The position numbers and the translations under genes are program-made. From positions 1,552 to 65,551 of IMG/VR virus record IMGVR_UViG_3300033148_003473: DNA of 64,000 nucleotides; one strand, written 5' to 3'. Numbering within the stretch: the stretch's first letter is position 1; the number at the start of each line of letters is the position of its first letter. The notes beneath the pieces are model-generated. The model made no database searches, was not told the DNA's origin, and saw only the letters and a program-made list of their open reading frames with translations. Source of the DNA: a virus. Lineage: Duplodnaviria; Caudoviricetes. This document shows, piece after piece, positions 4,819 through 31,338 of the stretch.

Positions 4819-5781
4819 CTAGCTCACTACGCTGGTGAAGTAGGCGGCGAGGTCAGCACCGACTACCTTCACATCAAAGGCCAGTTCGGCCTCGTAGCGT
4901 TCGGCCTTCAGTTCGTCCATGCGGAAGCTGTCAACACCGATACCGTAGGCGTTGGCGCCTGCGTAACCCGTCCAGATGAAGTTGTAGAGTGCTGACGGGG
5001 TACGTAGTCCCGGGTTCGGGGCCACGTGTCCGAGCCAGGCATTCTTGCCCCAGAAGAACGAGTAAGAACCAGTGGCGCCCTCCTCGGCGGTGTTGCGTGT
5101 CGCGAACGGGATAACAAAGCGGTCCACGTCGAACACGGCGGCTATGAGGTCGGGGGTGACTATACCGCGCTGGGTATACTTGATGCGGTCAAGAATGTCG
5201 GGGTGGTCGGCCAGCTTGGCGAAGACCTCGGGACCCACCACCATGAGGTTAGGTTTGCGCCCGGTGACCTCGCGGATATTGAAGGCCTGCGTGCGCACGT
5301 CCTCAATCGGCGTACTTGTTGCGTCGTCCCACTTCGTGCTGACACTGATATCGGCACCCGTGGTCGAGCCGGTCCAGGTCGAGGCCTGGAACACCGTGGA
5401 GGCCACCTGGGACTCGCGGGCAATCAGCATCTGCTCGGTGACGAAGTTTACAGCGTCGGTCGTGGCATCGAGCGGGTTGTCGGTATTGGCCGCCGTCTGG
5501 TCGTCGAGGTCCTTGTGTACCGCCCAGACCTCGCACTCGTAGGTGGCCCACTCAATACCGTAGCCCGAGCCAGCGGACTCGGTACCGGGTGCCCGACGGC
5601 GGGCGCTGTTCTGCATCCAGTAGGACTTGGTGTAGGTCGGGTACTTGTCGGACTGCTTCTGGACTGGTACACGGGGGGCTATGGAGTCAGCGGCGAAGTT
5701 ATCGGCCTGCTGGATATAGGCTATCGACAGGTTGGTCAGCGGCTGGTCAACATGGACTTCAGTGCGTTTGGGCTGTGCCAT
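4819..5781 (-). CDS. major capsid protein
   Basis: HVDQPLTNLSIAY, PRVPVQKQSDKY, TGRKPNLMVVG, HPDILDRIKYT, WGKNAWL. Confidence 0.9.
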   Translation of the reverse strand: MAQPKRTEVHVDQPLTNLSIAYIQQADNFAADSIAPRVPVQKQSDKYPTYTKSYWMQNSARRRAPGTESAGSGYGIEWATYECEVWAVHKDLDDQTAANTDNPLDATTDAVNFVTEQMLIARESQVASTVFQASTWTGSTTGADISVSTKWDDATSTPIEDVRTQAFNIREVTGRKPNLMVVGPEVFAKLADHPDILDRIKYTQRGIVTPDLIAAVFDVDRFVIPFATRNTAEEGATGSYSFFWGKNAWLGHVAPNPGLRTPSALYNFIWTGYAGANAYGIGVDSFRMDELKAERYEAELAFDVKVVGADLAAYFTSVVS

Positions 5782-8257: not shown

Positions 8258-8467
8258 TCACATTAACCCCGTACTACCCCACGCCAGCACTAGCGGTACA
8301 AACTGGCGCGTCTCTCGAATCTCGTGCATGTATTCACATTCACCCGTTGACGAATACACCCAGCGTCGCTTACATTTCGTGCAGTAGAGCTCCAGGCCCT
8401 TGACGGGCTTTACCACCCGGGCCAGGAGCCGATTACATGCGCAGCGTACCTCGATTTCATCAGGCAT
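8258..8467 (-). CDS. Mu Com-like zinc finger protein
   Basis: EVRCACNRLLA...LYCTKCKR. Confidence 0.65.
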   Translation of the reverse strand: MPDEIEVRCACNRLLARVVKPVKGLELYCTKCKRRWVYSSTGECEYMHEIRETRQFVPLVLAWGSTGLM

Positions 8468-9398
8468 TGAAAATCAACCCCACTGTGCAACGGCATGACG
8501 GATGGAGCGTCGGGAACATGACCTCGCCGAACTGGTCTGAATGAAACGGTTCAGTCAATCCCACCTCCTGGCCGTCCATGGCCGCACAGTAGATACAGCG
8601 CCTGTCGTCGGGTGTGGTAATCCAGACTCGGCGGGTCCGGGTCGGGTCGAGTATACCCCTGTTGGCGAGGTCCTCCCAGCTCGCCTGCAAACCGGCGTTG
8701 GCGGCGTTCAGTGTTTCTGTACGGGCCACATTTCGCGCCCGATAGGTAAGTAGTCGTTCACGGTAGCCCGAGGCCATACGGTCCACGTAAAGCGGGTTAA
8801 AGCCCTCTTCCAGGAGCCCCTGCCGGTAGCTGTCAACGGCCAAGGCGTGCTGTTCGGTGAGCCCCACAACCTCGCGGATACGCCGTGCCTGTTCGTAGGG
8901 GTGGCCCCCCTGGTCAATGGCCCGGCTGACGATACGACGTACAGCCTGTCTTGTCTCGTCAGTGACCCGTGTAATAAGTCTTGCGCCCTGCTGTTCGGCG
9001 TAGCGTACAGCGTAGGGATTGTCGATATTGAACGATAACCCTACCCCTAATTGCCGGGTGGTACGTATGGCTGCCGTCAGTGACGTATCACGGATAACCT
9101 CGCGTAGTGTGCCCATGATAGCGCCCAATTCAGCTGTCAGTACCCCACTGGCTACAGCTTCAACTACCTGCTGTATGGCCTGCTCTTTCGTCACTGCCCC
9201 GGCGAGTATGGCGCGTACCTGTTCTACGTTTACGTCCTGATTGAGCTGGCGCAAGGCCCGTAGCACGTCCTCCTCGACCCGGGCCACACGGCTATCAGCG
9301 GCTCGATGCACGTACAACCATTCAGTATCGTCTATGGGTACGTCGGTGGGCTCGAAACGGTCCTGTTTGTGTACTGGTGCGCGGAAGACGAAGCGCAT
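8460..9398 (-). CDS. minor head protein (MuF / SPP1 gp7 family)
   Basis: RARNVARTET, WITTPDDRRCIYC, PTLHPSCRC. Confidence 0.9.
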   Translation of the reverse strand: MRFVFRAPVHKQDRFEPTDVPIDDTEWLYVHRAADSRVARVEEDVLRALRQLNQDVNVEQVRAILAGAVTKEQAIQQVVEAVASGVLTAELGAIMGTLREVIRDTSLTAAIRTTRQLGVGLSFNIDNPYAVRYAEQQGARLITRVTDETRQAVRRIVSRAIDQGGHPYEQARRIREVVGLTEQHALAVDSYRQGLLEEGFNPLYVDRMASGYRERLLTYRARNVARTETLNAANAGLQASWEDLANRGILDPTRTRRVWITTPDDRRCIYCAAMDGQEVGLTEPFHSDQFGEVMFPTLHPSCRCTVGLIFNA

Positions 9399-9651: not shown

Positions 9652-10764
9652 TCAGTTCACCCCCAATGCGTCCTTCAGCGTCTCAACCACACGGTCCACA
9701 TCGTTGGCGGTCATGGCCGGAAATAGAGGAAGTGTTAGGGCTCGTTCGTAGTAAGCATCGGCGTTCGGGAATGTCTGCCCGGGTCGCACGTACTTGTGAT
9801 AAAGACTCATTTGATGCAGTGGTTTGTAGTGGACCTGCACCCCTATGCCGTGTTTGTGCATGTAGTGGTAGACAGCTTGGCGGTCAGCGCTTTTGGGCAA
9901 CTGTACCGGATAGATATGGCACGCATGAAGCCTGTCTTCGGGCCACGGTGGGAGCTGTAGCCCGTCAACCCCTGCGAGGCACAGGTCGTACATAGTCCAC
10001 AGTTCGCGACGGGCATCGAGGTAGCGGTCGAGTCGCGCCAGCTGGCTTAATCCGAGTGCGGCCTGAATGTCTGACAGGCGGTAATTATAGCCGGTAGCGA
10101 TTAACAGTCGTTCCCAGTCCACGTAGGGCGCCTGACCGTGATTCCGTAGTGCCCGTATGCCATTGGCGGATTGTTCATCATTCGTTAGTATCGCTCCACC
10201 CTCAGCGGTCGTGATGTGTTTGGCGGGGTGGAAACTGAGGCAGGTGAAGTCAGGGTACTCGGTGTTACAAGCACCCAATGAGTGGCAGGCGTCGGAAATC
10301 AGGTACAGTTCCTGGCCAACCAGGTTAGCCTCGGTCACGTAAGCTCCCAGTGTTCGGCACTCCGCAGGTAATCCAGCAAAGTCCACGGCCATAACTACCC
10401 TTACGTCGTCGTTCATAAGGGTATCCACGCAGTCGAGGTCAATAGTCAGGTCCTCGCCCACGTCAGCCATCACCGGTGTAGCCCCACAATAGAGCACCGC
10501 ATTGGCGGTAGCTGCAAATGTGAGTGCAGGTACTATTACCTGGTCGCCCGGGCCCACCCCTGCGGCGAGTAGAGCTAAATGGAGCGCCGCCGTTCCCGAG
10601 TTGACCGCCACGGCATGATTCGCCCCCGTCACCTCGCATAGTGCCTGCTCGAACTCGGCCACCTTCGGTCCCTGTGTTAACCTATCGCCTTTCAACACCT
10701 CGACCACGGCGTCTATGTCGGTCTGTGTTATTTCGTGAGCTGCGTAAGGGAGGTAGTCCGTCAC
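9652..10764 (-). CDS. pseC: PseC-like UDP-4-keto-6-deoxy-HexNAc aminotransferase (DegT/DnrJ family)
   Basis: LTQGPKVAEFE, NSGTAALH, DACHSLG, SFHPAKHITTAEGG (PLP lysine), GYNYRLSDIQAALG, GVQVHY. Confidence 0.88.
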   Translation of the reverse strand: MTDYLPYAAHEITQTDIDAVVEVLKGDRLTQGPKVAEFEQALCEVTGANHAVAVNSGTAALHLALLAAGVGPGDQVIVPALTFAATANAVLYCGATPVMADVGEDLTIDLDCVDTLMNDDVRVVMAVDFAGLPAECRTLGAYVTEANLVGQELYLISDACHSLGACNTEYPDFTCLSFHPAKHITTAEGGAILTNDEQSANGIRALRNHGQAPYVDWERLLIATGYNYRLSDIQAALGLSQLARLDRYLDARRELWTMYDLCLAGVDGLQLPPWPEDRLHACHIYPVQLPKSADRQAVYHYMHKHGIGVQVHYKPLHQMSLYHKYVRPGQTFPNADAYYERALTLPLFPAMTANDVDRVVETLKDALGVN

Positions 10765-11756
10765 ACCGTCACCCCCACGGTGGTAAGCAAATCTCGCATG
10801 GTTTCAACGTCCAGCCACTCGGTGTTCGTGTCTGACCTGTAGCTCCAATTTTCGGGTACGCGCTTCCCGCTCGTGTCCTGTCTACCCCAGTAGGGACTCA
10901 CTGGCTGTATCAGGTAGTAATCGCCCATGTCGAGTGTGTGTGCGGCTTCCTCCTCAGTAATAAGCACCTCGTAGCTCCGTTCGTAGGCGCGGAGGCCCAC
11001 GATTTCGTGCTCAGCGTTGGGAGCGATTGCCTCGGCCAGGTCAGCAAGCTTCATGCTCTTGAGCTGCGGTACGAATATCTCGCCACCAGTCATGTCGCCA
11101 AGCCGGTCAATGACGAACCGTACAGCATCAGGCAGCGTTATCCAGAAGCGCGTCATGCTGGGGTCGGTGATTTGAATGGAGCCCGCTTCGCGTTGCTTCG
11201 CCCAGATTTCCACCACGGAACCGCGTGAACCGAGCACGTTGCCATAACGGACAACCGACAGGTGAGCGCCCGAGTGGGTCGCGTAGCCGTTGAAGTAGAC
11301 CCACATGGACTCACCAACAGCTTTAGTTTCGCCGTATAGCGTAACGGGGACTGTAGCCTTGTCCGAGCTTAGGAGTATCGCCCGTGGGACGTGGTTCGCT
11401 ATCGCCGCGTCGGCCACGTTGGTGGTGCCGTTAATGTTGGTCTTGGCAGCCTCGTCGGGGCTGTACTCACAGACCTCGATACGCTTTAGTGCTGCGGCAT
11501 GAACGATAACGTCCACACCGGTGGCCGCTCTTATGACCCGTTCGCGGTCGCGCACGTCGCCTATGAGCCAACGTAGCCTTGGATCGTCGCCGAACTCACA
11601 GCGCATGTCGTACTGCTTCTTCTCGTCACGGCTGAATATACGGATTGCATGTGGGCTGTGGTTCGCCAGAACTTCCCTGCAAAAAGCGTGACCGAAGGAC
11701 CCCGTACCCCCGGTCAGAAGAATGGTTGTGTTGTTGAGCGTCACCCCGGTAGTCAC
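10761..11756 (-). CDS. pseB: PseB-like UDP-GlcNAc 4,6-dehydratase (inverting)
   Basis: TGGTGSFG, SRDEKKQ, GDVRD, HAAALK, SSDKA, YGETK, RYGNVLGSRGSV, ITDPSMTRFWI. Confidence 0.9.
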   Translation of the reverse strand: MTTGVTLNNTTILLTGGTGSFGHAFCREVLANHSPHAIRIFSRDEKKQYDMRCEFGDDPRLRWLIGDVRDRERVIRAATGVDVIVHAAALKRIEVCEYSPDEAAKTNINGTTNVADAAIANHVPRAILLSSDKATVPVTLYGETKAVGESMWVYFNGYATHSGAHLSVVRYGNVLGSRGSVVEIWAKQREAGSIQITDPSMTRFWITLPDAVRFVIDRLGDMTGGEIFVPQLKSMKLADLAEAIAPNAEHEIVGLRAYERSYEVLITEEEAAHTLDMGDYYLIQPVSPYWGRQDTSGKRVPENWSYRSDTNTEWLDVETMRDLLTTVGVTV

Positions 11757-12001
11757 CCCTTCTCGTTCTGTTTCCACCCCAGTCCTGCCAAATCCAATTT
11801 CCCTCGCTGCGCCACCTCCTGAAACACGGGTAGCAGCTCGGTCATGTCGAGGTCCAGTGGTCTACCGTGAATTACGCCAAAAGCTAGAGCTGCCCTGTAG
11901 AGCGCGTCGCCCGGATTGTCCTCGCTGAGCACAGTTTCGCGAAACGTAACTGTGGCCGCCTCGAACTCCTCTGCAGCCTTGAGCACGTCGTGGTAGCTCA
12001 C
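11753..12001 (-). CDS. hypothetical protein
   Basis: ORF with start/stop overlaps on both sides. Confidence 0.55.
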   Translation of the reverse strand: MSYHDVLKAAEEFEAATVTFRETVLSEDNPGDALYRAALAFGVIHGRPLDLDMTELLPVFQEVAQRGKLDLAGLGWKQNEKG

Positions 12002-12528
12002 GCTTCCACCTCCACCTTGAGCTCCTGCCAGTCAGCACGATTAAACGAGAACCACAGCGACGGCCAGAACTCCCCCGCCCAGTATTTCCGCTTGGGCAAC
12101 ACCGTCGTGTAAGCGTTGTAGCGGTCCGCCATGCGTTGCCAGAAGTCGATAGCGGGGTTCGACGCATAGCACTCACCGTACACGGTCTCCAGCCCGAGAT
12201 AGTCGAACGCCTGTTCAAGGATTAGTTCGACCACCTGTGCTCCAAGCCCCTGCCCACGCAGGTCGGGCCGCACATTCAGCGCAATCTCGGCAGTGCGGTT
12301 TTCCCACTGGATACCGACGAGTGAAGCGTGCGCCACGAACTCTCCGGCTTCCAATACAGCCCACGAACGGCGGTTGGAGTTCCTGTCGCAGATAACACGC
12401 TCGTACCAGTCGCGTTGCATTTCTTCAGTGAGGTAGAACGGTGTTCGCCAGGGGGCTAAATTCTCGTTGCGCCACTGACGGATTTGCTCAGCATACTCGG
12501 CAGTGAGTGGGGCGAGCGTGAGTGTCAT
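11998..12528 (-). CDS. GNAT N-acetyltransferase (PseH-like)
   Basis: IRQWRN, RGQGLG acetyl-CoA motif, AFDYLGL, NPAIDFW; adjacent to pseB. Confidence 0.75.
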   Translation of the reverse strand: MTLTLAPLTAEYAEQIRQWRNENLAPWRTPFYLTEEMQRDWYERVICDRNSNRRSWAVLEAGEFVAHASLVGIQWENRTAEIALNVRPDLRGQGLGAQVVELILEQAFDYLGLETVYGECYASNPAIDFWQRMADRYNAYTTVLPKRKYWAGEFWPSLWFSFNRADWQELKVEVEA

Positions 12529-12728
12529 AATGTGGTCGCCTTGCCTATTGCCCATAGATACTCGTATATCTGCTTATGGAACCTCTCGCCCAGTTGTCTA
12601 TCGTCAGGCTTGCCTATCTTCTCCCATGTCTGGCGGGTCAAAATCAAATCAACGGTCTGCGTACTCCCGCTTGGCGATACCGATATGCTAATAGTATCGC
12701 TCACCCCAACAAGCACCCCTTTCAGCAT
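12525..12728 (-). CDS. hypothetical protein
   Basis: overlapping start/stop with neighbours. Confidence 0.5.
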   Translation of the reverse strand: MLKGVLVGVSDTISISVSPSGSTQTVDLILTRQTWEKIGKPDDRQLGERFHKQIYEYLWAIGKATTL

Positions 12729-13384
12729 ACCTCCCGCACCGTCTCGAACGCCTCAGCACATTCAACCCCGGCCACCGAACCCCAGTAACGGTGACGGGCG
12801 CAGATGGCCTCCATGCTTCGCGGGTGTGGGAAGTCGCGTAGTTCGCTCTCGTAGCAGCTAAGCGCCTCCAGTTTGGTCTGCTCATAATCGCCAATATCAA
12901 CGAAGTGGTTCGGTCTGAACGGTCTCAGGCCCCATTCCGTACTACTGGGTACCTCGTAGGCGTAAATCGCCTTCACGTTACTGCTGTGCGGCCTACAGGC
13001 TATCAGTGTGGCCTCGTGTACGCGGCGGTGGTCCTGGTTCAGGTCGGCGTAGGAGTGGGTGTAGACGGTGTGGGGGTTGAAGTTTTCGAGCATGAACTCA
13101 ACATGTTTAGCAATGTCCAGCAACGCAACTTGGTCAAGGCGCTGGTCAGGTTCATTGGCCTGTCTGTAGTCTGTGAAGCCCAGCACCCCTACTGCACGCT
13201 CAAGCGCGTTCATACGCTCTATTTGCGCGAATTCTCTACCTAACGCATTGCCCCCAAAGCGCGAAGCCACGCCCCTTGAAAGCGTCATAAGGTAGACCGT
13301 ATCACCCTCAGCCACATGCCTCGCGATAGTGCCACCCATGAAGCTCTCGTCATCGCAGTGTGCCGCTACGATGAGGATGTTCAT
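12722..13384 (-). CDS. PIG-L/LmbE family deacetylase
   Basis: AAHCDDE, DLNQDH, PNHFVDI, KLEALSCYESE, PHPRS, AEAF. Confidence 0.88.
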   Translation of the reverse strand: MNILIVAAHCDDESFMGGTIARHVAEGDTVYLMTLSRGVASRFGGNALGREFAQIERMNALERAVGVLGFTDYRQANEPDQRLDQVALLDIAKHVEFMLENFNPHTVYTHSYADLNQDHRRVHEATLIACRPHSSNVKAIYAYEVPSSTEWGLRPFRPNHFVDIGDYEQTKLEALSCYESELRDFPHPRSMEAICARHRYWGSVAGVECAEAFETVREVC

Positions 13385-13631: not shown

Positions 13632-14116
13632 GGCTTGCGATCTTTAAGATCTTCGTAGACCATGGGCTCTACATCGGCACGCCAACCTAGTGCTGCACGC
13701 AGGTCTATCCACATGCCCTCAGGAATCTTGATGGAATATTTGTTATTCCACACATCATAAGCGCCAAGCTTGGGTATATCTATATCCACTACTTTGCCGT
13801 CAAATATGCCAACTTGATAGTCGTCTCGGCGAATGCGGTCCAGTTTATTATTTTCACAATCCCCTCGAAGGCCTATCCTGATTTCATTGACCTTCGCCCT
13901 AGCGAGATAAATCGGGGCTTCTTTGAGCCATTCATCAAGCTCGATGCCCACTTTCGATGTTCCTGATGCTGCTTCAGTTTGGCGCGCCTCGGCCTTTTCT
14001 AGTCGCGCTTGCGCCTTGCGGTAACTCGCCTCCATGCGATTGCTCATAAGCCACCCCGCAATGCATGAGACCATTAACGTAGTTCCTATGCCCCACAGAA
14101 AACTGGGCCAATCCAT
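13628..14116 (-). CDS. membrane-anchored hypothetical protein (lower GC)
   Basis: N-terminal TM helix followed by coiled coil. Confidence 0.6.
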   Translation of the reverse strand: MDWPSFLWGIGTTLMVSCIAGWLMSNRMEASYRKAQARLEKAEARQTEAASGTSKVGIELDEWLKEAPIYLARAKVNEIRIGLRGDCENNKLDRIRRDDYQVGIFDGKVVDIDIPKLGAYDVWNNKYSIKIPEGMWIDLRAALGWRADVEPMVYEDLKDRKP

Positions 14117-14121: not shown

Positions 14122-15084
14122 TCACCCCTTTTCAAAATGCTCCCAGAGAATCGCCTCGTCAGGCGCGTAGTTTCGTGGTGCCTGCCTACCGTAAAGTGCG
14201 TGCATGTCGCGGGGCTCGATTCCGCCGTGCCCCGTCCGCTTACAGCCAAGGTTGGCCCCAGTTAATCTCTCACCCACAGTAATGCGCTTGCTCGCAACCA
14301 CGTACCGTCTTGCCACGCGCAGTAATTCTTGCTCCTCCGCAAGCGGCCATTTCTTGCCGTCGCCGAGCAGGCGTTCGGTCTCGCGAATGTCGGCAACCAA
14401 TTGCCTTAATTCGTCGGGCTCACAGGCAAAGTGGTGGTCGGGGCCCTCCATGGTCTTATCCAGTGTGAAGTGCTTTTCAATAACGGTTGCACCCAAGCCA
14501 ACCGCTATCATGCAGGCAAGGTTCCCGAGCGTGTGGTCGGAGTAGCCTATCCGAAAGTTCGGGAAGGCCCGTTGAAGCGTCGTGATTGCCCGCAGATTCG
14601 CGTTCTGGGCCGGATACGCCATGACACAGTGCAGGAGCGTCACGTCGCAGTTGCGTAGGCGTTTGACGCTTGTGCGTATCTCGTCGAGCGTACACCCGCC
14701 TGTGGAGAGAAATACCGGCCAGCCTGTCTCGTTGATAGCGTCAATCAGCGGCAGGTTGGTCAGGTTCGAGCTCGAGACCTTGAGTTGCGGCGGATTGAGG
14801 TCCAGTACGTCGTCGAGTAGAGGAACGCTCACTACCGTCGCAAAGGCGTCGAGGCCCAAGGCATTGGCGTGGGCGTAAAGCATTTCATAGTCCTCATGGT
14901 CGAGTTCACCACGACGGAAGGTGGCGTAATACTCTGAGTCGGGTGTACAGATTCCACTAGCTACCACGTACTGGAACTTCACTGCGTCGGCTCCGGCCTC
15001 ATGTGCAGCGTCAATCAGCTCAGTTGCAAGGCCCGTGTCGCCCTGGTGGTTTAGGCCGATTTCGGCGACAATGTAGGTGGTCAT
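14122..15084 (-). CDS. nonulosonic acid synthase (NeuB/PseI family) with C-terminal SAF domain
   Basis: IVAEIGLNHQGD, DAVKFQ, LLHCVMAYP, GYSDHTLG, IEKHFTLD..GPDH. Confidence 0.92.
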   Translation of the reverse strand: MTTYIVAEIGLNHQGDTGLATELIDAAHEAGADAVKFQYVVASGICTPDSEYYATFRRGELDHEDYEMLYAHANALGLDAFATVVSVPLLDDVLDLNPPQLKVSSSNLTNLPLIDAINETGWPVFLSTGGCTLDEIRTSVKRLRNCDVTLLHCVMAYPAQNANLRAITTLQRAFPNFRIGYSDHTLGNLACMIAVGLGATVIEKHFTLDKTMEGPDHHFACEPDELRQLVADIRETERLLGDGKKWPLAEEQELLRVARRYVVASKRITVGERLTGANLGCKRTGHGGIEPRDMHALYGRQAPRNYAPDEAILWEHFEKG

Positions 15085-15323
15085 GGTCTTTTACTCTGCA
15101 CGTAGTCGGTTATGTCCTGCCACCAAACAAGGTTGTACCGTATAGGCCCCATTTTGAAAGTGAGTTCTCTGGCTCGCTCGCTTTCAACGGCTTCCTGTTG
15201 CATTTTCCGAAGCCAATCTAGCGGGTGTATGTTGATTGTGGCCGTGCGCGTTTCCGCGCCTCCTGCGTATGGATTGTACTGCTCATAGCGCACAAAGTAA
15301 TGCCGCTCAGCCACCCAGTTCAC
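15081..15323 (-). CDS. hypothetical protein
   Basis: overlapping start/stop with neighbours. Confidence 0.55.
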   Translation of the reverse strand: MNWVAERHYFVRYEQYNPYAGGAETRTATINIHPLDWLRKMQQEAVESERARELTFKMGPIRYNLVWWQDITDYVQSKRP

Positions 15324-16048
15324 CCCTTTCCAATCTCTTTCGCCGGATCCCCCACCACCGTCACCCCTGCCGGTACGTCCCGTGTCACCACTGCCCCAGC
15401 CCCCACGGTTGCACGTTCACCTACCCGTACATGGTTTAGCACCACTGCATTGGCGTACACAGTCGCATTATCTTCGAGCACACATGAGCCACAGAGTACC
15501 ACACCCGGGGCAATGAAGCAGTTCCTACCCACCTGCACGTTGTGGCCCACTGTGACTCGGTTGCCGATTTTGGTGCCGTCGCCGATACGGGTATCCATGA
15601 GGTTGCCGCGCATGACCACGGTGTAGGGGCCAAGGTCCACGTCCTCGCCAATGACTACCCCGCCAAGGTGATAGACTTCGACGTATTCGGGACCGTCCTG
15701 TGCGTAAGATAGCCCTGTTGCCCCCAATACGGCCTCGCGAGCAATATTTGCACTACGAGCCACGTTGAGCGTTGGTGGTGGTGGACCGCTTGGGAAGAGT
15801 TTGTGTAGCAGTAGCGCAAAGGTCAGCCGTGGGTTACTGCTCGGGATTATGGCCCGATAATCGTGTGGTTCGCCCATATCGCAGACCACGATACCGCGTT
15901 CGGGGATATTACCCGTCTCGACGAAGCAGAGCGTGAACGTATCGGAATCCTCAGGGGTACTCACACCGAGCACAGGGTGACGGTCAAAACCGTGGTAGTT
16001 GTCGGTCAAGTCGCGCAGGTCCATGGGGTTCTGTGCAGGTATCACCAT
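15320..16048 (-). CDS. hexapeptide-repeat (LpxD/NeuD-like) acyltransferase
   Basis: NPRLTFA, HLGGVVIGEDVDLG, TKIGNRVTVGHNV, VGAGAVVTRDVP..VVGDPAK. Confidence 0.85.
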   Translation of the reverse strand: MVIPAQNPMDLRDLTDNYHGFDRHPVLGVSTPEDSDTFTLCFVETGNIPERGIVVCDMGEPHDYRAIIPSSNPRLTFALLLHKLFPSGPPPPTLNVARSANIAREAVLGATGLSYAQDGPEYVEVYHLGGVVIGEDVDLGPYTVVMRGNLMDTRIGDGTKIGNRVTVGHNVQVGRNCFIAPGVVLCGSCVLEDNATVYANAVVLNHVRVGERATVGAGAVVTRDVPAGVTVVGDPAKEIGKG

Positions 16049-16608
16049 GCACCGTCCACCCGGGCGAAGCGTATTGTGCCCACATGTTCCTCGTTGTCGT
16101 AGATGCTGGACTCGGTAAACTTGGGACTGCCACAGCGCCCCTCGTAGCAGAGGTGACATTCACTGCCGTCAAGGGGACGGTGTAAGAACAGGTTGGTCAG
16201 TGCCCACTTACTCGGGCCATAGGTCGCGATATGCAGGTGCTTATTCGCGGCCACCACCGTCTCTATCGGGTTACACTGCCCGCGCCCGGTTATCGCCCAC
16301 CAATCACCCCAATCGTGCTCAACCCGTACCTCGCCCTCGCGGCAGGGATTCCTGCCCCGTATCTCGCCTGGACGTACCACGAGCCAACCCTTACGTTTCT
16401 TGCCGTCAGTCTCAATATCGAACTTCACGTTCCAGAACGGCGGTTCGTCCTCGTCTACAATCAATGTAAGTGGGCCGCGAGCCCAGTGCCGAAACTCCAT
16501 ATAGAGCGAGTCGAAATCGCCAAAGAGCTGTACTACCGCGTCGTACATGTCAGTGCCGTGGAGATAGTCTCTTTGGCCCTTGTAGCGGAGGCGGAGGGGG
16601 ATTCTCAT
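16042..16608 (-). CDS. hypothetical protein, possibly hotdog-fold
   Basis: YKGQRDYLHGTDMYD motif; fold assignment is a guess. Confidence 0.45.
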   Translation of the reverse strand: MRIPLRLRYKGQRDYLHGTDMYDAVVQLFGDFDSLYMEFRHWARGPLTLIVDEDEPPFWNVKFDIETDGKKRKGWLVVRPGEIRGRNPCREGEVRVEHDWGDWWAITGRGQCNPIETVVAANKHLHIATYGPSKWALTNLFLHRPLDGSECHLCYEGRCGSPKFTESSIYDNEEHVGTIRFARVDGAW

Positions 16609-17017: not shown

Positions 17018-17746
17018 TTACATATTGGTCGGTCCCGCGTGTTGTCGTATCAATCGGTTGCGCTGTAGCACCAGCGGGTTCCGGTCCAGATAGCCCACAA
17101 TCTCTTCTGCCGTGGCCCAGTACCCCAACTCGGCCACGAGCTTGCGTACAACTTCGAGGTCTTCGGGTTCGTCCACACACAGCCGATAGTCGGGCCTACA
17201 CAGTGCCTGTGGCGCCCACACGTTGCGAACATTGAAATCAATAGCGTGCTGGTAAAGGTAGCGCGTTGGATGCTCGCGACAATCCTGCGTCAGGCTTGGT
17301 ACGCTATCGAGTGCGCGGAGCGTCGAGTAGGCGATAACCTCCGTGTCGAAGCCTCTTGGGTAGGTGCGCGGGTAGGCGTTCGTGGCGAGCGTTACACCCT
17401 CGTCGAAGGCCCGTACTACCCGGTCCACTGTCTCAGGGTCAATGAGCGGGCAGTCGCCCGTGATACGCACCACCGTGTCTGCTTCGAGTTCGTTGGCCGC
17501 ATGCACGTACTCACCCAGTACGTTGCGGTCTACTCCTGTCGCGAAGCAGGGATAGCCCCAGAGCCTTACCAGCGTGGCGAGTTCGGTGTCTTCCTTCGGC
17601 ACGGTGACGGCTATCTCGTCGAGCGTGGTGCAGTGCTGGAGGCGTTCAAGTAGAAGATGTAGGAGGTAGAAGTCGCCGATTGTTGCGAGTACCTTACGCG
17701 GAAAGCGCTCGCTGCCGAGGCGAGCCTGGACTACGGCGACGTTCAT
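17018..17746 (-). CDS. CMP-nonulosonate synthetase / SpsF-like cytidylyltransferase
   Basis: QARLGSERFPRKVL, VVRITGDCPLIDP, TYPRGFDTEV, REHPT, RLCVDEPEDL. Confidence 0.88.
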   Translation of the reverse strand: MNVAVVQARLGSERFPRKVLATIGDFYLLHLLLERLQHCTTLDEIAVTVPKEDTELATLVRLWGYPCFATGVDRNVLGEYVHAANELEADTVVRITGDCPLIDPETVDRVVRAFDEGVTLATNAYPRTYPRGFDTEVIAYSTLRALDSVPSLTQDCREHPTRYLYQHAIDFNVRNVWAPQALCRPDYRLCVDEPEDLEVVRKLVAELGYWATAEEIVGYLDRNPLVLQRNRLIRQHAGPTNM

Positions 17747-17937
17747 AGTTTGCGCCGCAACTTCCGGCAATCATGTTCAAGCAGCAACGCCACGATAGCC
17801 AGGGATCCTAGCATGATTCTGGACGCCCACTCGGGCTGAAGCCCTAGCAGGACCGCCACAGCGACACCGAGAGCGGCACAAACAAGCGTGATGATAGTGA
17901 CCTTCACCATCGTGTGTAGTCGGTCGAATTGTTTCAT
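17743..17937 (-). CDS. small two-TM membrane protein
   Basis: two hydrophobic stretches. Confidence 0.55.
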   Translation of the reverse strand: MKQFDRLHTMVKVTIITLVCAALGVAVAVLLGLQPEWASRIMLGSLAIVALLLEHDCRKLRRKL

Positions 17938-17952
17938 CACCCCACCCACCCC

Positions 17953-19026
17953 TTAGCGTGAACTCTCACTGATAATCCCTGCCTGCAGCTCGTAGGACTT
18001 CGGCAATCGCCCCGTGCTGGGTGTCACCCCAACCTCCTCGGGTTCAGGTGAATCCACGTCGTGCAGCAGGTCCCAGTTTTCGAGCCCCACCGTCCACGCC
18101 CGTTCGATATATTCCATGTTGCCGAGTGCGCCCATGTACTGGTGTAGCTCAAACTGCTTTTGCTGCAGTTGGGCCTTGGTTTGCTGCACCTTTTGCTGTT
18201 CGGACTGCATACCAGGAGCGAGTACCTGCCACAATGGTACGGATTTGTCGCCGATTTGCACCACGGGATTCTGGTCCTGCGGGAACTGTCTGGCTATCCA
18301 CTGGAAGGTCTGGACCGAACCAACTGCTCTTTGCATGGCAGTCGAGGTTTCGTTGAGCTGGCCCTTGGCACCCTGCAGCTTTTCGGTGAGTTCCTTGAGG
18401 CGACCCTTGATTTTGACCTTGAAGGCATTGTCGGACTGGTAGCCGTAGAGGAAGGGGGTCTTTAAGAGGTCGGCGCCCTGTGGCACGTACAGTGAATACT
18501 GCGGGCCGTTATAGATTCCAGCCTTAGCCCAATCACGGGCCATGAGCTCCTTGCCCTTTTGGAGACCAAGCCAGAACTCGCAGGAGGGCCTTTGCTGAGC
18601 ATGTTCGATGGTGTGTGCCATATCCACGCCGTAGACAGCGATATGGTGGAAGTCCATGCGGAGGGCAAGGGCTATCATGTACGAGATTGAGTTGGTGAAG
18701 TAGTCGCCCGCATAGCCGATATACTGCACGAGTTCTTTCAGTGGATACTCGACCGAGGCGGGTACGTCGTCCTCGGTGTCCCACATGTAGATAGGCATTT
18801 GCTGGGCCTTTATCCAGTCCACGTGGTTCTCGTCCCGTCTGGCTGTACGCCAGTCGCGGTGGAGTTGGAACCAGCGGTAGCGCTCAATATCGGTGATAGG
18901 AATTATCTTGTAGAGCTCGTTGAGCCCCCAAATCTCGTAGTCGTCAGAGTGAAACGGTGCCTCGGTCCAGGTGGGTGCAAAGCCCACAATAGCAACCTTG
19001 TCCCGTATGCGTTCCAGCGCCTGCAT
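17953..19026 (-). CDS. putative Maf/sialyltransferase-fold glycosyltransferase with C-terminal coiled coil
   Basis: KVAIVGFAPT, IWGLN, TNSISYMIALALRMDFHHIAVYGVDM resemble the GT29/GT42/Maf pattern. Confidence 0.55.
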   Translation of the reverse strand: MQALERIRDKVAIVGFAPTWTEAPFHSDDYEIWGLNELYKIIPITDIERYRWFQLHRDWRTARRDENHVDWIKAQQMPIYMWDTEDDVPASVEYPLKELVQYIGYAGDYFTNSISYMIALALRMDFHHIAVYGVDMAHTIEHAQQRPSCEFWLGLQKGKELMARDWAKAGIYNGPQYSLYVPQGADLLKTPFLYGYQSDNAFKVKIKGRLKELTEKLQGAKGQLNETSTAMQRAVGSVQTFQWIARQFPQDQNPVVQIGDKSVPLWQVLAPGMQSEQQKVQQTKAQLQQKQFELHQYMGALGNMEYIERAWTVGLENWDLLHDVDSPEPEEVGVTPSTGRLPKSYELQAGIISESSR

Positions 19027-19053: not shown

Positions 19054-19236
19054 TTACTGCTCCAGTGGCTCAATCGTGACCAGGAACGCCTGTCCCTGAT
19101 ATAAGAGTAGCCTCGCCACCTGCGCTACCTCACTCGCCGGTATCTCCAAATCAAGCCGCGAGGAACTGTCCTGACCGTGTAAGCGTATCGCGCTCAGTGT
19201 GTTGGCCAGTGAGGCCACGAACTGAATCTTTTCCAC
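19054..19236 (-). CDS. hypothetical protein
   Basis: ORF with RBS. Confidence 0.5.
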   Translation of the reverse strand: MEKIQFVASLANTLSAIRLHGQDSSSRLDLEIPASEVAQVARLLLYQGQAFLVTIEPLEQ

Positions 19237-19252
19237 AAGTACACCCCTTTCG

Positions 19253-20554
19253 CTACTCCGCAAGGTCCCGCTGAAGTTCCATGTCTATATAGGGCAGGTC
19301 GAGCTTTTCGGCCACGTGCCTTTCGACTCGCCCGTCAGGGCTCGGCGTGAAAATAAAGCCTGCCTGCGAAGCCTGCAGCAGGGCCTTGGTCCACTGTTCC
19401 ATGTCCTCCTTCTCGATATCGCCGTGTACGAGTTGGGGCATGGTGTCCATGTCGAAGCCGTTCAGCCGCCACAGCCTCGGAATAGCGTGGCGGTTGAATA
19501 CGCTCGTTATCTCGTCGAGGTAGGCACCAAGAGCAATCGCAAAGACGTTGGTTTTGCTACTGGACAACGCGAAGCTGCCCACTTTCTCGTGACCTATTAG
19601 CAGGAAGTCGGCCAGTACCGTCATGGCGAGACGCTGGTCGTAATATTCGATAATGCTTTTCACGTCGAACTGCCGCTGGCCGCCGGTGGAGAGCAGTTTG
19701 ATTGTGACCAGCGGGTCGCCGTTGTCGTCGCGGGGGGCCGGAAGCACAACACCTTCCTGCTCGTCGCGGCGAATATTGGTGACTATCTCCTTGAACTCGT
19801 CCTCGAACGCTTTCAGAATCTCGGGGTCACCCTCGATTATCGGATAGCCCGCCAAATCGCGTTCCACGCCGATACCAAGTATGTTCTCAAGGTTCTGCTT
19901 GAAGTACCAGGGACGGAAGGCATTACGCAGCACTGCCATACCCTCGGGGTTACCCTTGTGTGAACCGGCACGGAAGAGCAATAGCTTGTGGTAGGGGATA
20001 TACGCTGTCTCGTAGCTGTTGGGCAGGCGCTGGGCGAGCCCCTGCAGCTCGCCAGAGTCGTCGAAGTCCCAGGTGCTAATGGTATCCTGGGCGCGGATCG
20101 GAATCTTGGCCCAGCCAATCTTACCGTCGTCGTACTGACTCGGCTGCGGGCCACTCCCGGGCCTTGAAGCGTTGTAGCCTGGTGGCACCTCGCCCTGCCT
20201 CCGCTTATAGACCAGTTCATGGACCGAGAAACCGTAGGGGATAAACGTCAGTATTTCCGTCAGCGTGTTTTGCCACGAGTCGGACATGTCGCCCAGGCAC
20301 GATTCCAGAAAGTCTGCCCCTTCCTGCGCCTCGGGAGTATCGTCAGCTGGCTCGGCGTTCCACGGCACCTGGCGGCACATGAGGTCCACCAGCCGGAATA
20401 CCGCCCCCAGCACCGGGTCGTTGTAGAGCATTTCCCTGTAGGTACGGTAGCGGCGGGCATACTGGAGGTCACGCAAAAACTCCTCCTGCACCTTGCCGCC
20501 CCACTGGGCGAGACCGCGCTTGCCGTAGATTTTGAGGTCGAGCTTTTCAGCCAT
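19253..20554 (-). CDS. portal protein (DUF935 / Mu gp29-like)
   Basis: YGFSVHELVYK, GNPEG..LRNAFRPWYFK, GVERDLAGYP, GSFALS, IPRLWRLN; follows TerL. Confidence 0.9.
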   Translation of the reverse strand: MAEKLDLKIYGKRGLAQWGGKVQEEFLRDLQYARRYRTYREMLYNDPVLGAVFRLVDLMCRQVPWNAEPADDTPEAQEGADFLESCLGDMSDSWQNTLTEILTFIPYGFSVHELVYKRRQGEVPPGYNASRPGSGPQPSQYDDGKIGWAKIPIRAQDTISTWDFDDSGELQGLAQRLPNSYETAYIPYHKLLLFRAGSHKGNPEGMAVLRNAFRPWYFKQNLENILGIGVERDLAGYPIIEGDPEILKAFEDEFKEIVTNIRRDEQEGVVLPAPRDDNGDPLVTIKLLSTGGQRQFDVKSIIEYYDQRLAMTVLADFLLIGHEKVGSFALSSSKTNVFAIALGAYLDEITSVFNRHAIPRLWRLNGFDMDTMPQLVHGDIEKEDMEQWTKALLQASQAGFIFTPSPDGRVERHVAEKLDLPYIDMELQRDLAE

Positions 20555-20561: not shown

Positions 20562-21947
20562 CTACCGTCCCTTCCAGCGTGACGGACGCTTGAGCAGTGC
20601 GTTGAGCGAGAAATCTATCTTGCCGATATTGCGTCGCCGTCCCAGCATGAGCTCGGTTAGCGCCCACACCAGTGCGTCCAGCCTGTCAGGCGAGGGGTCG
20701 CCCGGTTCCCACGAGCACAGCTGGTCCTCCAGGTCACCGAACGTGCCGACGTGGTGTACCAGACCCTGTTCATAGAGCGCCGCTATCGGTTCGGCGCGAA
20801 TTGCTTTACCACGCGAGGCCCGGACCTGCTTGTAGGCGGCCTTCGGGTCCACGGTGTGAATCGTGTGCTCTATCATGTCGCCGCCGTTGTTGACCTCACC
20901 GATAATGCGGTCTGCCTCATACTGCTCGTAGGCGTTGACGGCGCGTTTGGCCCACGCGTCGGGCTTGGCACGAACGGTCCGGTCGTCAAGTACAAAGCCG
21001 TGTAGTTCGCGCTCACCACGCGCCTTGGAATAGCCGACACCGGCCACGACAATACCGGTCTCACTGGAGGTATCGCTGACACTGACGGCGGGGTCAATCG
21101 CCACCACGATACGTTCAAGTATTGGTGCCTCGGTGAGGCGTAGCTTGTCGAGTGTGGCCCGTTTCCAGAGTGCACCGGGGGCATCATCCAGTATCTCGCC
21201 GGTGAGCTCCTGTCTACCGAGCCGGGTACCCTCGTACTTGCGGATAATTTCTGCGAAGAATGGTGGCGCAAGGTTTGCCCTGTTCTCATAGGTGGTGCCC
21301 CGGGTGATACGCACATCCTCGGGGTTTTCGGAGCGTGCGACAAGCTCCTTGATAATCGGGATTGGCTTGGGTGTGGTGGTCACTATGACCCGGGGGTCGT
21401 CACCGAGCCGGAGTCCGAACATGAGCATGTCCCAGGTTTCCTGCGGGTATTTCCAGGCGGCCAGTTCGTCACACCATGCAGAGTCGTGCTGGGGTCCGCG
21501 CAGCTGATTGGCCTTGTGTGAGGAGTAAATAGTGGCCACGGCACCGTTCTTCCAGGTAAGCCTGCGCTTGGAGGGCTCGTAGAGCGGCCTATCCCATGGC
21601 GGGCAGACATTCAAAAGCCCACTCTCGCCCTCAATCATGACGTCCCGGGCATCGGCGGGCGTGTCGGCCACAAGTGCAATGCGACGGGCCTTGCCGGATT
21701 CAACCCGCTGTCGAACCCATTCTGCCCCCGCTCTAGTTTTCCCGTATCCTCTCCCGGTAAGTAACAGCCAGATTCGCCACTGGCCATCCGGTGGTAGCTG
21801 CTTGGGCCGCGCCCAGAAATCCCAGTTGTACATGAGCCCCTCGGACCCATGCGGGTCGGAGGCAGCGAGGTCATCCAGTATCAGCTTCTGTTTCTGTTCG
21901 CTCAGCGAGGCGACGTATGCGGCCAGCGAGCTCTTCCCGGTCGGCAA
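20562..21947 (-). CDS. terL: terminase large subunit
   Basis: Walker A GRGYGKT, LRGPQH..WCDELAAW, TTTPKP, VVAIDPA, SPDRLDALVWA; TTG start after GAGGTG. Confidence 0.95.
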   Translation of the reverse strand: MPTGKSSLAAYVASLSEQKQKLILDDLAASDPHGSEGLMYNWDFWARPKQLPPDGQWRIWLLLTGRGYGKTRAGAEWVRQRVESGKARRIALVADTPADARDVMIEGESGLLNVCPPWDRPLYEPSKRRLTWKNGAVATIYSSHKANQLRGPQHDSAWCDELAAWKYPQETWDMLMFGLRLGDDPRVIVTTTPKPIPIIKELVARSENPEDVRITRGTTYENRANLAPPFFAEIIRKYEGTRLGRQELTGEILDDAPGALWKRATLDKLRLTEAPILERIVVAIDPAVSVSDTSSETGIVVAGVGYSKARGERELHGFVLDDRTVRAKPDAWAKRAVNAYEQYEADRIIGEVNNGGDMIEHTIHTVDPKAAYKQVRASRGKAIRAEPIAALYEQGLVHHVGTFGDLEDQLCSWEPGDPSPDRLDALVWALTELMLGRRRNIGKIDFSLNALLKRPSRWKGR

Positions 21948-22338
21948 GCGTGTCCACCTCTTTGCGTTCCGTTGGTTCACCGGAGAGTAGCTGGGCCTTG
22001 TCGATAAGCGTGCCAATGGCTGTGGTCATGTGGTGAATGGCGGCCTTGTCCAGCCGCTCCCTTGAGTCCACCTCGTCGAGCATGGTACGGATTTTCTGCC
22101 AGGCAATCTCCACGAACTCTGCCTTGCGCTCTACCAACTCGTCGCTGGCCCGCTGCCAGGCGCGCTCGTTAATGGCCTGCCTGCGAGCCTCCCAGTTATC
22201 CTGCCTCGCCCAGTTCTGGAGCGTTGGTATGGACGGTTCGCGTTCGCGGCTTATCTCGGCCAAAGATTTGCCCATGCAGTAGTAGGTGAAGCAAGTTAGT
22301 CGCTCCTTATCGCTATAGGCGTATCCGGGGCCAGCCAT
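21871..22338 (-). CDS. terS: terminase small subunit (HTH)
   Basis: N-terminal HTH (SLAEIS...TLQNWARQDNW); directly upstream of TerL. Confidence 0.7.
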   Translation of the reverse strand: MAGPGYAYSDKERLTCFTYYCMGKSLAEISREREPSIPTLQNWARQDNWEARRQAINERAWQRASDELVERKAEFVEIAWQKIRTMLDEVDSRERLDKAAIHHMTTAIGTLIDKAQLLSGEPTERKEVDTLADREELAGRIRRLAERTETEADTG

Positions 22339-31145: not shown

Positions 31146-31338
31146 TCGGTATCAGCCTCCTCATACAATTTCGCCGCGTACCCCACACCTGAAACTGCTG
31201 GGCCGCAAGCTGCAATGAGTGTCACTGTTGCGATGAACGGATGGATTAGCACTTGTTCCAACGCGTACCAGCTCACGATGCTCCCTAGCGCGAAACCAAT
31301 GTACGCCCAGCACAACGCTGTGATGGCGAGTAATGCCC

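Follow-up and report, generated by a model that had tools for sequence, protein, structure and literature searches.

The DNA analysed here (the window) is a stretch of 64,000 nucleotides belonging to a complete phage genome of 65.5 kb, and since a tyrosine integrase is encoded at 47341-48498, the phage is considered temperate. The interval 17953-19026 is occupied by a single ATG-to-stop open reading frame (ORF) of 357 amino acids on the minus strand, and the plus-strand frame over the same interval is stop-rich throughout. At and around this target ORF lie the following features:

20562-22016: large terminase, the neighbour beyond the portal gene
19253..20554, minus strand: Mu-type portal protein (PF06074, E 1.7e-40; phrog_113, E 6.6e-86), upstream of the target
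19054..19263, minus strand: small ORF of 69 aa without family match, between portal and target and overlapping the portal stop
17953..19026, minus strand: target ORF (P0001; 357 aa), which may encode a CMP-nonulosonate transferase belonging to a new phage family
18442..19026, minus strand: N-terminal catalytic-type domain of the target, residues 1 to ~195, with a predicted sialyltransferase (GT42/Maf/MptE-like) Rossmann-type fold
18064..18429, minus strand: C-terminal Gln-rich helical hairpin of the target, residues 200-321, coiled-coil-like
17956..18048, minus strand: C-terminal tail of the target, residues 327-357, pLDDT < 50, probably disordered
17743..17949, minus strand: small ORF of 68 aa without family match, directly after the target
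17018..17770, minus strand: CMP-sugar cytidylyltransferase (PF02348 CTP_transf_3, E 1.4e-17), which would make the activated donor
15320..16159, minus strand: hexapeptide-repeat sugar N-acetyltransferase, NeuD/PglB/VioB-like (PF00132; TIGR03570, E 1.5e-28)
14122..15084, minus strand: NeuB-family nonulosonate synthase with SAF domain (PF03102, E 3e-65)
12722..13384, minus strand: PIG-L family deacetylase (PF02585, E 9e-23)
11998..12555, minus strand: GNAT acetyltransferase, weakly PseH-like (PF13302, PF00583; TIGR03585 at 41.9 bits, under the cut-off)
10761..11777, minus strand: PseB-like UDP-GlcNAc 4,6-dehydratase (PF02719, E 1.2e-82; TIGR03589 at 393.8 bits, cut-off 407.75)
9652..10764, minus strand: PseC-like aminotransferase (PF01041, E 7.5e-103; TIGR03588 at 378.5 bits, cut-off 423.5)
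8460..9398, minus strand: MuF-like head morphogenesis protein (PF04233, E 4.5e-10)
4819..5781, minus strand: major capsid protein (PF03864, E 4.9e-9), which could serve as an acceptor

The target is tightly packed between the portal and sugar genes on one strand, and together with the sugar cluster it is inserted between the portal gene and the MuF gene. The initial annotation had placed it on the portal side at the head of a sugar cluster, a setting that is borne out by the Pfam-annotated neighbours. The motifs quoted there (KVAIVGFAPT, IWGLN, TNSISYMIALALRM and HIAVYGVDM) are all found unchanged in the 357-aa translation, as is the Gln-rich helical stretch SEQQKVQQTKAQLQQKQFELHQ, which comes after HIAVYGVDM. 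A role of the target as the head protein of the MuF position was considered and rejected, as a separate MuF gene is present at 8460-9398. Three small ORFs of 69, 68 and 80 aa, along with two larger ones of 188 and 162 aa, were considered as conserved partners and likewise discarded, as tblastn found none of them beside homologues of the target.

The NeuB of the window scores 291 bits with TIGR03569 and 213 bits with PseI, both under their cut-offs. A search of the phage genome for a UDP-releasing enzyme of the PseG or NeuC/LegG type found none, and no GT2- or GT4-type gene is present in the complete genome. This genome holds one copy of the target's family, and the target is the sole glycosyltransferase-like gene recognised in it. 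The proposal that this gene would complete the system is borne out in part only, as the UDP-releasing step was not found.

With the target sequence itself, zero family matches were obtained in Pfam (to E 10), PHROGs and NCBIfam, its scores lying below the gathering scores of both PF06002 (CST-I) and PF01973 (MptE-like), and the PDB sequences returned no match except a chance SMC coiled-coil. Among 50 relatives, weak Pfam matches were led by these same two families, namely CST-I in 11 (best E 0.0023, sub-threshold) and MptE-like in nine (best E 0.025). When a profile of the family was aligned with 18 CST-I family proteins using hhalign, a probability of 95.9% (E 6.5e-9) was reached over 125 columns, covering the G-x-G-P-S/N motif and the T-S...YM..A..GY.EI...G-x-D...Y motifs, and in a profile search of PDB sequences CstII ranked first, at the quoted motifs (E 0.04). 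Judged by these comparisons, the motif likeness of the target to sialyltransferases exceeds chance.

The donor-site positions of CstII, which comprise the N-terminal G-N-G-P-S, Asn31, T131-S132, G-I-D154 and Tyr162, are aligned by hhalign to G15..P18-T19, N36, T111/S113 and G133-V-D135 of the target. CstII Tyr156 lies opposite Ala137, and Tyr142, which is near-invariant in the family and aligned to CstII Tyr162, is a His in the target. The catalytic base of GT42 is His188 of CstII (PMC4202792), and the lid that carries it (His202 in Cst-I) corresponds to a ~23-residue stretch for which the phage family has no equivalent in a relaxed hhalign alignment of near-zero confidence at that point. Fourteen positions are family-invariant and all present in the target, namely G15, N36, H56, P95, Y109, N112, S115, A121, G133, E141, P147, E150, G154 and Y194. 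Some homologues carry inteins inserted directly after the conserved GVDMAxDxEY motif, which identifies this motif as a key conserved site. An intein within a putative glycosyltransferase-like active-site motif is unusual in itself.

The initial annotation had assumed a pattern common to Maf, CstII and GT29. Such a pattern is recovered for CstII, but the match to 24 Maf proteins reached a probability of just 5.4% over 21 columns round G-x-D (the Maf alignment being shallow and from one order, Campylobacterales), and the likeness to GT29 is seen at the fold level only. As it reaches no Pfam threshold and the catalytic-His segment of GT42 is missing from the alignment, the target cannot be counted as an ordinary GT42, Maf or GT29 protein.

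As had been suggested along with that pattern, a predicted structure was compared with solved ones, CstII and Maf among them, and a sialyltransferase-type (GT-A-variant) fold was obtained. The N-terminal ~190 residues were modelled alone, since a VIA search with the whole model was swamped by coiled-coil look-alikes, and AlphaFold2 returned this domain at pLDDT 93.7 and pTM 0.90. Foldseek assigned 15 PDB chains to the domain model at E <= 0.001, and all matches listed were CstII or Cst-I (best E 3.6e-6, TM 0.49-0.52, rmsd 7-8 A), with the Pasteurella sialyltransferase 9c08 next and GT29 sialyltransferases at E 0.013-0.08; the full model matched the MptE 6-hydroxymethylpterin diphosphokinase (HPPK) at E 1.3e-2. 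A VIA scan of 48,161 chains, which is independent of Foldseek, yielded just four chains at Z >= 8, namely Cst-I (10.5; 162 residues aligned, rmsd 3.7 A), Maf 5MU5 (9.5; 160 residues, 3.4 A, Maf residues 261-499), the MptE kinase 8sd5 (9.2) and SteA (8.6). Four GT29 sialyltransferases followed at Z 6.2-7.6 and thiamine pyrophosphokinases at Z 5-5.8, rank 50 being at 4.3. The models therefore support a sialyltransferase (GT42/Maf/MptE-like) fold for the N-terminal domain; since the Z scores differ little between Cst-I, Maf and the MptE pyrophosphokinase, the fold by itself is no proof of a transferase.

The remainder of the protein is predicted to form two long helices (residues 200-247 and 265-321, pLDDT 74-88), and the whole-model VIA matches to this helical part are coiled-coil hairpins at Z ~10-12. 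In the family alignment, a motif of the type G-A-x5-Y/F-x3-W occurs twice in the hairpin, once past each long helix.

The target has 1,329 relatives, and the cluster representatives at 50% identity number at least 5,364. The family is almost entirely viral, unannotated and without a Pfam model, and an Atlas look-up returned unnamed viral clusters only, the nearest cluster with a family being MptE-like (13% of members, score 0.82), to be taken as no more than a lead. A search for fusions exceeding 625 aa came back empty, which is weak evidence, and the N-terminal extensions of ten relatives contained no Pfam domain, bar one sub-threshold PhyH. Some phages carry tandem arrays of paralogues, and two copies of the family reside in Acidobacteriota chromosomes. 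In a limited literature collection, neither a phage-encoded nonulosonate transferase nor a GT42-like phage family was described.

A co-occurrence with NeuB had been raised as a further check, and it was found in most of the homologue-bearing viral records tested. Among 24 long records, which were the longest among the 80 best matches rather than a random draw, NeuB was present in 18 and a CMP-sugar synthetase (CTP_transf_3) in 19, and each of the two in 7/7 records of >= 90% completeness. When the homologues were clustered at 50% identity, NeuB occurred in nine of 13 clusters, the other four holding incomplete records alone. Among phages in general NeuB is very rare: as a baseline, the window NeuB matches 3 of 50,697 GenBank phage records. 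The complete genome of the Microcystis phage Mvi-Yong1342-1 encodes a distant homologue (26% identity) without NeuB. In the reverse direction, the family was present in four of 45 NeuB-bearing viral records, so that it cannot be the sole route by which phages use nonulosonates. The family has 438 loci in IMG/VR. Of 80 IMG/VR loci examined, 29 have the homologue on the strand of the capsid gene and 0.7-2.7 kb downstream of it, and this placement recurs with three capsid-gene families, including the Mu-gpT-type and the HK97-type. In relatives, Ig-like and lectin-like ORFs are encoded in the interval from the capsid gene to the homologue.

From our point of view, it is probable, if by no means certain, that the target is a glycosyltransferase using CMP-nonulosonates, from a new family essentially confined to phages, the acceptor most likely being a virion protein. 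The late (head) operon of the phage would express a Pse-type pathway, in which the PseB-like dehydratase, the PseC-like aminotransferase, N-acyltransferases, the NeuB-family synthase and the CMP-sugar synthetase would yield a CMP-activated 5,7-diamino nonulosonate. The target enzyme would then move the nonulosonate from the CMP donor, presumably by an inverting mechanism as in GT42, onto an acceptor during particle assembly. The likeliest acceptor would be the hydroxyl of a Ser or Thr residue on a virion protein. As a first guess, this protein could belong to the head. Residues 128-157 of the major capsid protein are 47% Ser+Thr over 30 residues; a Ser/Thr-richness scan of the structural proteins did not discriminate an acceptor, since many virion proteins of this phage are Ser/Thr-rich. 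The helical hairpin might act in oligomerisation or acceptor choice. The initial annotation had arrived at a similar interpretation, which is supported in part, by the sialyltransferase fold, the CstII donor-site motifs, the linkage to NeuB and CMP-synthetase and the single glycosyltransferase-like gene; a protein acceptor, the tail tube as the target and a docking of the coiled coil onto assembling particles are its conjectural parts.

The closest known enzymes are CstII and Cst-I of Campylobacter jejuni (GT42, PF06002), which share with the target the fold, homologous donor-site motifs (an N-terminal G-x-x-P-S/T plus Asn, and T-S...YM..A..G..EI..G-x-D...Y) and CMP-activated nonulosonates, which they use and to which the target is linked genomically. 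The identity, however, is ~14-17%, a C-terminal coiled-coil hairpin stands in the target where CstII has its own C-terminal region, and unlike CstII and Cst-I the target is phage-borne and encoded in a head operon. Its acceptor is probably not lipooligosaccharide, and its donor is probably of the Pse/Leg type rather than Neu5Ac.

Maf (PF01973, MptE-like) resembles the target in the fold of its central domain, and both are encoded near Pse/Leg genes. Paralogue arrays are also common to the two, with seven Maf matches in one Campylobacterales genome. Maf is described to attach the nonulosonate to Ser/Thr residues on a structural protein that self-assembles (10.1101/2020.06.03.131540; PMC11339370), its acceptor being set by helical accessory parts, either GlfM, a partner protein forming a four-helix bundle, or a TPR domain (10.1101/2023.12.03.569772); the latter work reconstituted Maf in laboratory E. 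coli making a CMP-Pse donor. However, Maf proteins comprise ~620-680 aa (24 Campylobacterales frames: 470-663 aa) in a three-domain architecture, in which large domains flank the central one on both sides, whereas the target has 357 aa, lacks a Maf-type N-terminal domain and begins its catalytic-type domain at about residue 10. Flagellin, the acceptor of Maf, is also no obvious acceptor for the target.

A third parallel is the glycosylation of mycobacteriophage virions, in which, reportedly, capsid and tail tube proteins are modified and the glycosyltransferase genes likewise lie among structural genes. The mycobacteriophage enzymes are ordinary GT-A/GT-B proteins that act on host nucleotide hexoses; neither a nonulosonate pathway nor a sialyltransferase-fold enzyme is known to be involved, in contrast to the target.

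It could also be imagined that the target is a CMP-nonulosonate transferase whose acceptor is the host surface, such as lipopolysaccharide, capsule, S-layer, flagellin or pilin, and which, in the infected or lysogenic cell, masks the receptor or excludes superinfecting phages. Lipooligosaccharide is what CstII and Cst-I, its nearest relatives of solved structure, sialylate (PMC4202792), and the phage is temperate. Moreover, 41 of the 45 NeuB-bearing phages do without the target's family, from which it follows that phage nonulosonate genes have family-independent uses. However, the target and the sugar cluster reside inside the late head operon, from portal to MuF, where promoter- and terminator-like sites are no commoner than in shuffled sequences, and with three families of capsid genes, the homologue comes after the capsid gene. 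On inspection, the AlphaFold2 model also gave no sign of a membrane segment or signal. We hence regard a host-surface acceptor as unlikely, although it deserves to be kept in mind.

Still less probable, in our estimation, is that the target is another enzyme of MptE-like fold, for instance a pyrophosphokinase or other nucleotide-using enzyme, or a non-catalytic CMP-sugar-binding or assembly factor. The broad fold is indeed common to the MptE-like 6-hydroxymethylpterin diphosphokinase, SteA and thiamine pyrophosphokinases, the first two scoring near the sialyltransferases in VIA, the catalytic His of GT42 finds no aligned counterpart, and the target stays under every Pfam threshold. However, the Foldseek matches listed for the domain at E <= 0.001 are GT42 sialyltransferases only, and the profile-profile match goes to CST-I. 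The linkage of the target to NeuB and CMP-sugar synthetase, by which it differs from the MptE-like enzymes and thiamine pyrophosphokinases, would be left unexplained by a pterin or thiamine kinase, and a link to folate or thiamine genes was not noticed. The 14 invariant positions, some of them polar (N36, H56, N112, S115, E141, E150), would also argue for catalysis. That the target adds the nonulosonate to phage DNA as a base hypermodification, rather than to a protein or host glycan, is hardly credible: the phage invests in DNA modification with three DNA methylase genes, and phage glycosyltransferases that hypermodify DNA reportedly exist, but the gene lies in the head operon by portal or capsid genes and away from replication genes, a hydroxymethyl-pyrimidine pathway was not noticed in a non-systematic look, and we know of no nonulosonate-DNA adduct.

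Returning to a nonulosonate transferase that acts on virion proteins, one could speculate that the family as a whole (at least 5,364 clusters) represents dedicated nonulosonate transferases, so that many environmental tailed phages would coat their capsids or other virion proteins with pseudaminic/legionaminic-type (Pse/Leg) 'bacterial sialic acids' from phage-encoded pathways during assembly, the His lid of GT42 being replaced by another catalytic arrangement. This would amount to a widespread type of virion glycosylation not described before. We put this generalisation forward tentatively and would rate its chances at somewhat less than even.

Few transferases for bacterial sialic-acid-like sugars are known, and these, namely Maf, FlmG and a handful more, are poorly understood. 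Knowledge on cognate nonulosonate transferases is likewise called scarce in PMC5420450. If our reading is correct, a function would be provided for thousands of unannotated phage proteins, and phage NeuB clusters, which are usually termed 'auxiliary metabolic genes', would gain a purpose related either to the virion or to the cell under infection. The compact (~240 aa) candidate nonulosonate transferases could further be of use for glyco-engineering. Pse/Leg-type sugars on phage particles would become testable, with a bearing on particle stability, adsorption and the recognition by hosts, grazers and the immune system.

The candidate transferase is a single 357-aa ORF at 17953-19026 on the minus strand of the window, an interval whose plus strand carries stops throughout. 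All strings quoted in the initial annotation are found in its translation, followed by the Gln-rich helical region. The virus record (65,551 bp, the window being its bases 1552-65551) has direct terminal repeats and a completeness rating of 100%, and its relevant genes are arranged as follows.

Minus-strand gene order from its head, followed by two plus-strand genes
small terminase, minus strand, weak match
large terminase, minus strand
19253-20554, minus strand, Mu-type portal
69-aa ORF, minus strand
17953-19026, minus strand, candidate transferase, 357 aa
68-aa ORF, minus strand
CMP-sugar cytidylyltransferase, minus strand
unassigned stretch, minus strand
hexapeptide N-acetyltransferase, minus strand
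NeuB-family synthase, minus strand
162-aa ORF, minus strand, function unassigned
PIG-L deacetylase, minus strand
GNAT, minus strand
PseB-like dehydratase, minus strand, 393.8 bits against a cut-off of 407.75
PseC-like aminotransferase, minus strand, 378.5 bits against a cut-off of 423.5
MuF head protein, minus strand
XkdF-type protease, minus strand
scaffold-like ORF, minus strand
major capsid protein, minus strand
47341-48498, plus strand, tyrosine integrase
49984-50919, plus strand, FtsK/SpoIIIE-family protein

From the minus-strand order we conclude that a cluster for a pseudaminic-type (Pse-type) nonulosonate (NulO), with the candidate gene at its head, is inserted in the operon for head morphogenesis, where it separates the portal gene from MuF. 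Neighbouring genes in this operon abut or overlap, and neither promoter-like sites (4 against 6.7 ± 2.1 in shuffles) nor terminator-like sites (6 against 10.0 ± 3.4) were in excess. The tyrosine integrase and the FtsK-like gene make it likely that the phage is temperate, despite the direct terminal repeats of the record; there are also three genes for DNA methylases. One 734-aa N6/N4 DNA methylase (32174-34378, minus strand; PF01555 in three stretches) appears to be split by an intein, LAGLIDADG_3 scoring 22.9 bits, barely above its cut-off, and Intein_splicing 21.7 bits, under its cut-off.

Searches of Pfam (up to E 10), PHROG, NCBIfam and the PDB sequences left the protein without a match. 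It nevertheless has 1,329 relatives at E ≤ 0.001 in a 90%-clustered collection; the best 120 of them show no Pfam domain, and none is informatively named. A 50-member profile, run against clusters built at 50% identity, retrieved the representatives of 5,364, and 2,123 of these scored E ≤ 1e-30. The family is almost wholly viral: viruses account for 88-100% of the Atlas clusters closest to it and IMG/VR holds at least 438 loci, while one genome from each of 185,579 prokaryotic species gave only 21 loci, every one in MAGs and two inside Acidobacteriota chromosomes. GenBank phages yielded one distant match (26% identity). A typical member has 230-300 aa and consists of the N-terminal domain and a single long helix with a G-A-x5-Y-x3-W motif at its end; a second helix repeating this motif occurs in our protein and a minority of members. 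All 14 invariant columns of the 50-sequence alignment are kept in our protein, in which the near-invariant Tyr142 of the family is His. One phage record (G055) carries four tandem paralogues at 27765-30176 of its contig (locus L112), one match containing TGA, and two further records (G034, G029) have two copies each; the tandem paralogues resemble those of maf in Campylobacterales, where genome G105 gave 7 MptE-like matches.

The fold of the protein points to the GT42 sialyltransferases CstII and Cst-I. In the full-length AF2 model (pLDDT 79.4), an alpha/beta domain (residues ~10-190) is followed by long helices at 200-247 and 265-321 and a disordered tail; Foldseek returned six PDB matches at E ≤ 0.001, all of them CstII/Cst-I, and a VIA search gave mostly coiled-coil look-alikes, with Cst-I (Z 10.0) and Maf (Z 9.2) still present. 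The N-terminal domain alone (residues 1-200), modelled from 148 sequences (pLDDT 93.7, pTM 0.90), matched 15 chains in Foldseek at E ≤ 0.001, CstII or Cst-I throughout among the matches listed (best E 3.6e-6; TM 0.49-0.52); next came 9c08, a sialyltransferase of Pasteurella multocida (4.7e-3), and then Rossmann proteins that are unrelated and of low probability. In a VIA scan of 48,161 representatives, only four chains reached Z ≥ 8, namely Cst-I (Z 10.5; 162 residues, 3.7 Å), Maf 5MU5 (Z 9.5; 160 residues, 3.4 Å), the MptE pyrophosphokinase 8SD5 (Z 9.2) and SteA (Z 8.6), followed by four GT29 sialyltransferases (7.6-6.2) and thiamine pyrophosphokinases (5.8-5.0), rank 50 standing at 4.3. BFVD placed uncharacterised Caudovirales proteins on top and, at lower ranks, a giant-virus DUF115 protein, a GT29 protein and phage 'MptE-like' proteins.

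At the sequence level, the top PDB match of the family profile was CstII (E 0.04), and the alignment covered the two motif blocks of the initial annotation. When 50 members were scanned singly, the commonest weak Pfam matches were CST-I (11/50, best E 0.0023) and MptE-like (9/50, best 0.025). With hhalign, the 148-sequence profile matched 18 CST-I family proteins from Campylobacterales genomes at 95.9% probability (E 6.5e-9) over 125 columns, from the N-terminal G-x-x-P-S/T...N block to T-S...YM..A..GY.EI..G-x-D...Y, and 24 Maf proteins at 5.4% over 21 columns. Together with the fold matches, the CST-I profile match argues that the domain is a distant GT42 homologue in the wider sialyltransferase/Maf/MptE-like fold group. 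One defining feature of GT42 was not recovered: its catalytic base, His188 in CstII and His202 in Cst-I, sits in the lid region (PMC4202792). When the alignment was extended under relaxed settings, at low confidence, this His came to lie in a stretch of ~23 residues without counterpart in the phage family; H56, E141 and E150 are candidate substitutes.

Inteins of ~300 aa lie directly after GVDMAxDxEY in some homologues (P0035, P0097 and P0033; alignment columns about 365-673), with Cys first and His-Asn last, followed by Ser/Thr; the site corresponds to residue 142/143 of our protein, about nt 18598-18603 of the window. Among the 50 members, LAGLIDADG_3 matched in three and Intein_splicing in two, and about a dozen of the best 150 cluster representatives (480-633 aa) are long enough for an intein. 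Such an insertion, unusual for a glycosyltransferase-like protein, marks the motif as strongly conserved and probably catalytic.

Within ±10 kb of homologues, tblastn found NeuB at no more than 8 of 80 loci, although many of the loci are short. In the whole records of the 24 longest contigs among these 80 best loci (23-88 kb; picked by length), NeuB (PF03102) was present in 18 and CTP_transf_3 in 19, each in 7/7 of the records at least 90% complete; the six NeuB-less records are all fragments (completeness 31-68%). The 24 records are not independent and form 13 homologue clusters at 50% identity, nine with NeuB and four without it, the latter represented exclusively by incomplete records. As a baseline, the NeuB of the window matches 3 of 50,697 GenBank 'phage' records by tblastn, one of which bears the label of a Moritella contig. 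These counts indicate that, in relatives at ~33-46% identity, a phage with a family member can be expected to have a NulO pathway too. The converse fails, the family being present in 4/45 NeuB-bearing IMG/VR records and in 1/10 of those at least 90% complete.

Distant branches may differ in this linkage: no NeuB was found in the complete genome of Microcystis phage Mvi-Yong1342-1, whose family member lies before the small terminase gene. This only cultured-phage relative (PP496355.1, 6914-7717; 26% identity) is annotated as a 'type 11 methyltransferase', a label that may have spread from fusions such as those of an Atlas cluster in which viral proteins of 442 aa join the same fold to Methyltransf_11/23/25 domains. 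Relatives of ~85 kb have a homologue of the PIG-L deacetylase (37-46% identity) directly upstream of the large terminase gene (L033 37-477, L039 167-853, L046 86-769); their paired adjacent NeuB genes (e.g. G010 29983-31709) suggest two NulO pathways.

The phage pathway would yield a CMP-activated Pse-type 5,7-diamino nonulosonate, which the protein would bind at a GT42-like site (G15/P18/T19, N36, T111/S113, D135 and residue 142) and move onto an acceptor hydroxyl, probably with inversion as in GT42. The helical hairpin, earlier imagined to dock on assembling particles, may serve oligomerisation or acceptor choice by analogy with Maf, whose specificity for flagellin depends on a TPR domain or on GlfM, a partner with a four-helix bundle (10.1101/2023.12.03.569772). 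The parts of this scheme established here are the fold, the GT42-type donor-site motifs, the NeuB/CMP-synthetase linkage and the late-operon position. No UDP-releasing enzyme of PseG type (TIGR03590) or NeuC/LegG type (Epimerase_2) was found in the phage genome; this step is either host-supplied or performed by an unassigned phage ORF, for which 16042-16608 and 13628-14116 are candidates. The cluster has a PIG-L deacetylase plus GNAT and hexapeptide acetyltransferases, and the sugar may be a non-standard N-acyl variant.

A producer of a CMP-activated sugar requires a transferase, and since the complete genome holds a single family copy and a search of it gave no GT2-type or GT4-type glycosyltransferase, our protein is the only candidate found. 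In 29 of 80 IMG/VR loci, a capsid homologue lies 0.7-2.7 kb upstream on the same strand, longer loci running from portal, MuF, protease, scaffold and capsid through one or two ORFs to the family member and then head-tail and tail genes; placement right behind the capsid gene recurs with Mu-gpT-type (locus L002) and HK97-type (L076) capsid genes. Among the intervening ORFs are some with weak resemblance to Ig-like and ConA/lectin-like proteins, perhaps encoding decoration proteins, and at locus L006 the gene is flanked by NeuB and UDP-GlcNAc 2-epimerase. Because of the recurring head-module position, we favour a virion protein as acceptor, the head being a first guess. Many putative virion proteins (409-4343 and 58412-62105, minus strand) are rich in Ser/Thr (19-30% overall, up to 50% per 30 residues), as are capsid residues 128-157 (47%); these could be O-glycosylation acceptors, Ser/Thr richness being non-discriminating.

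An acceptor on the host surface instead of the virion is the strongest competitor, plausible although clearly less likely, the nearest solved relatives modifying lipooligosaccharide and the phage being temperate. That the MptE-like fold has a role other than transfer is more doubtful still, given the CST-I profile match and the linkage to NulO genes, and decoration of DNA with NulO appears very improbable. The initial observation is confirmed and its interpretation partly supported: the transferase part of the proposal of a Maf/GT29/GT42-like enzyme acting on protein is well supported by fold, donor-site motifs and NulO linkage, a protein acceptor, the tail tube as target and docking through the coiled coil being conjectural.

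Known analogues are Maf and the virion glycosylation reportedly described in mycobacteriophages by Freeman and co-workers in 2023. Among the full texts searched, none described a nonulosonate transferase encoded by a phage or a family of GT42-like phage proteins. Overall, we regard the family as a branch of the sialyltransferase fold that is new, specific to phages and very large; its catalytic segment differs, its genomic setting is new, and its acceptor class is probably new as well.
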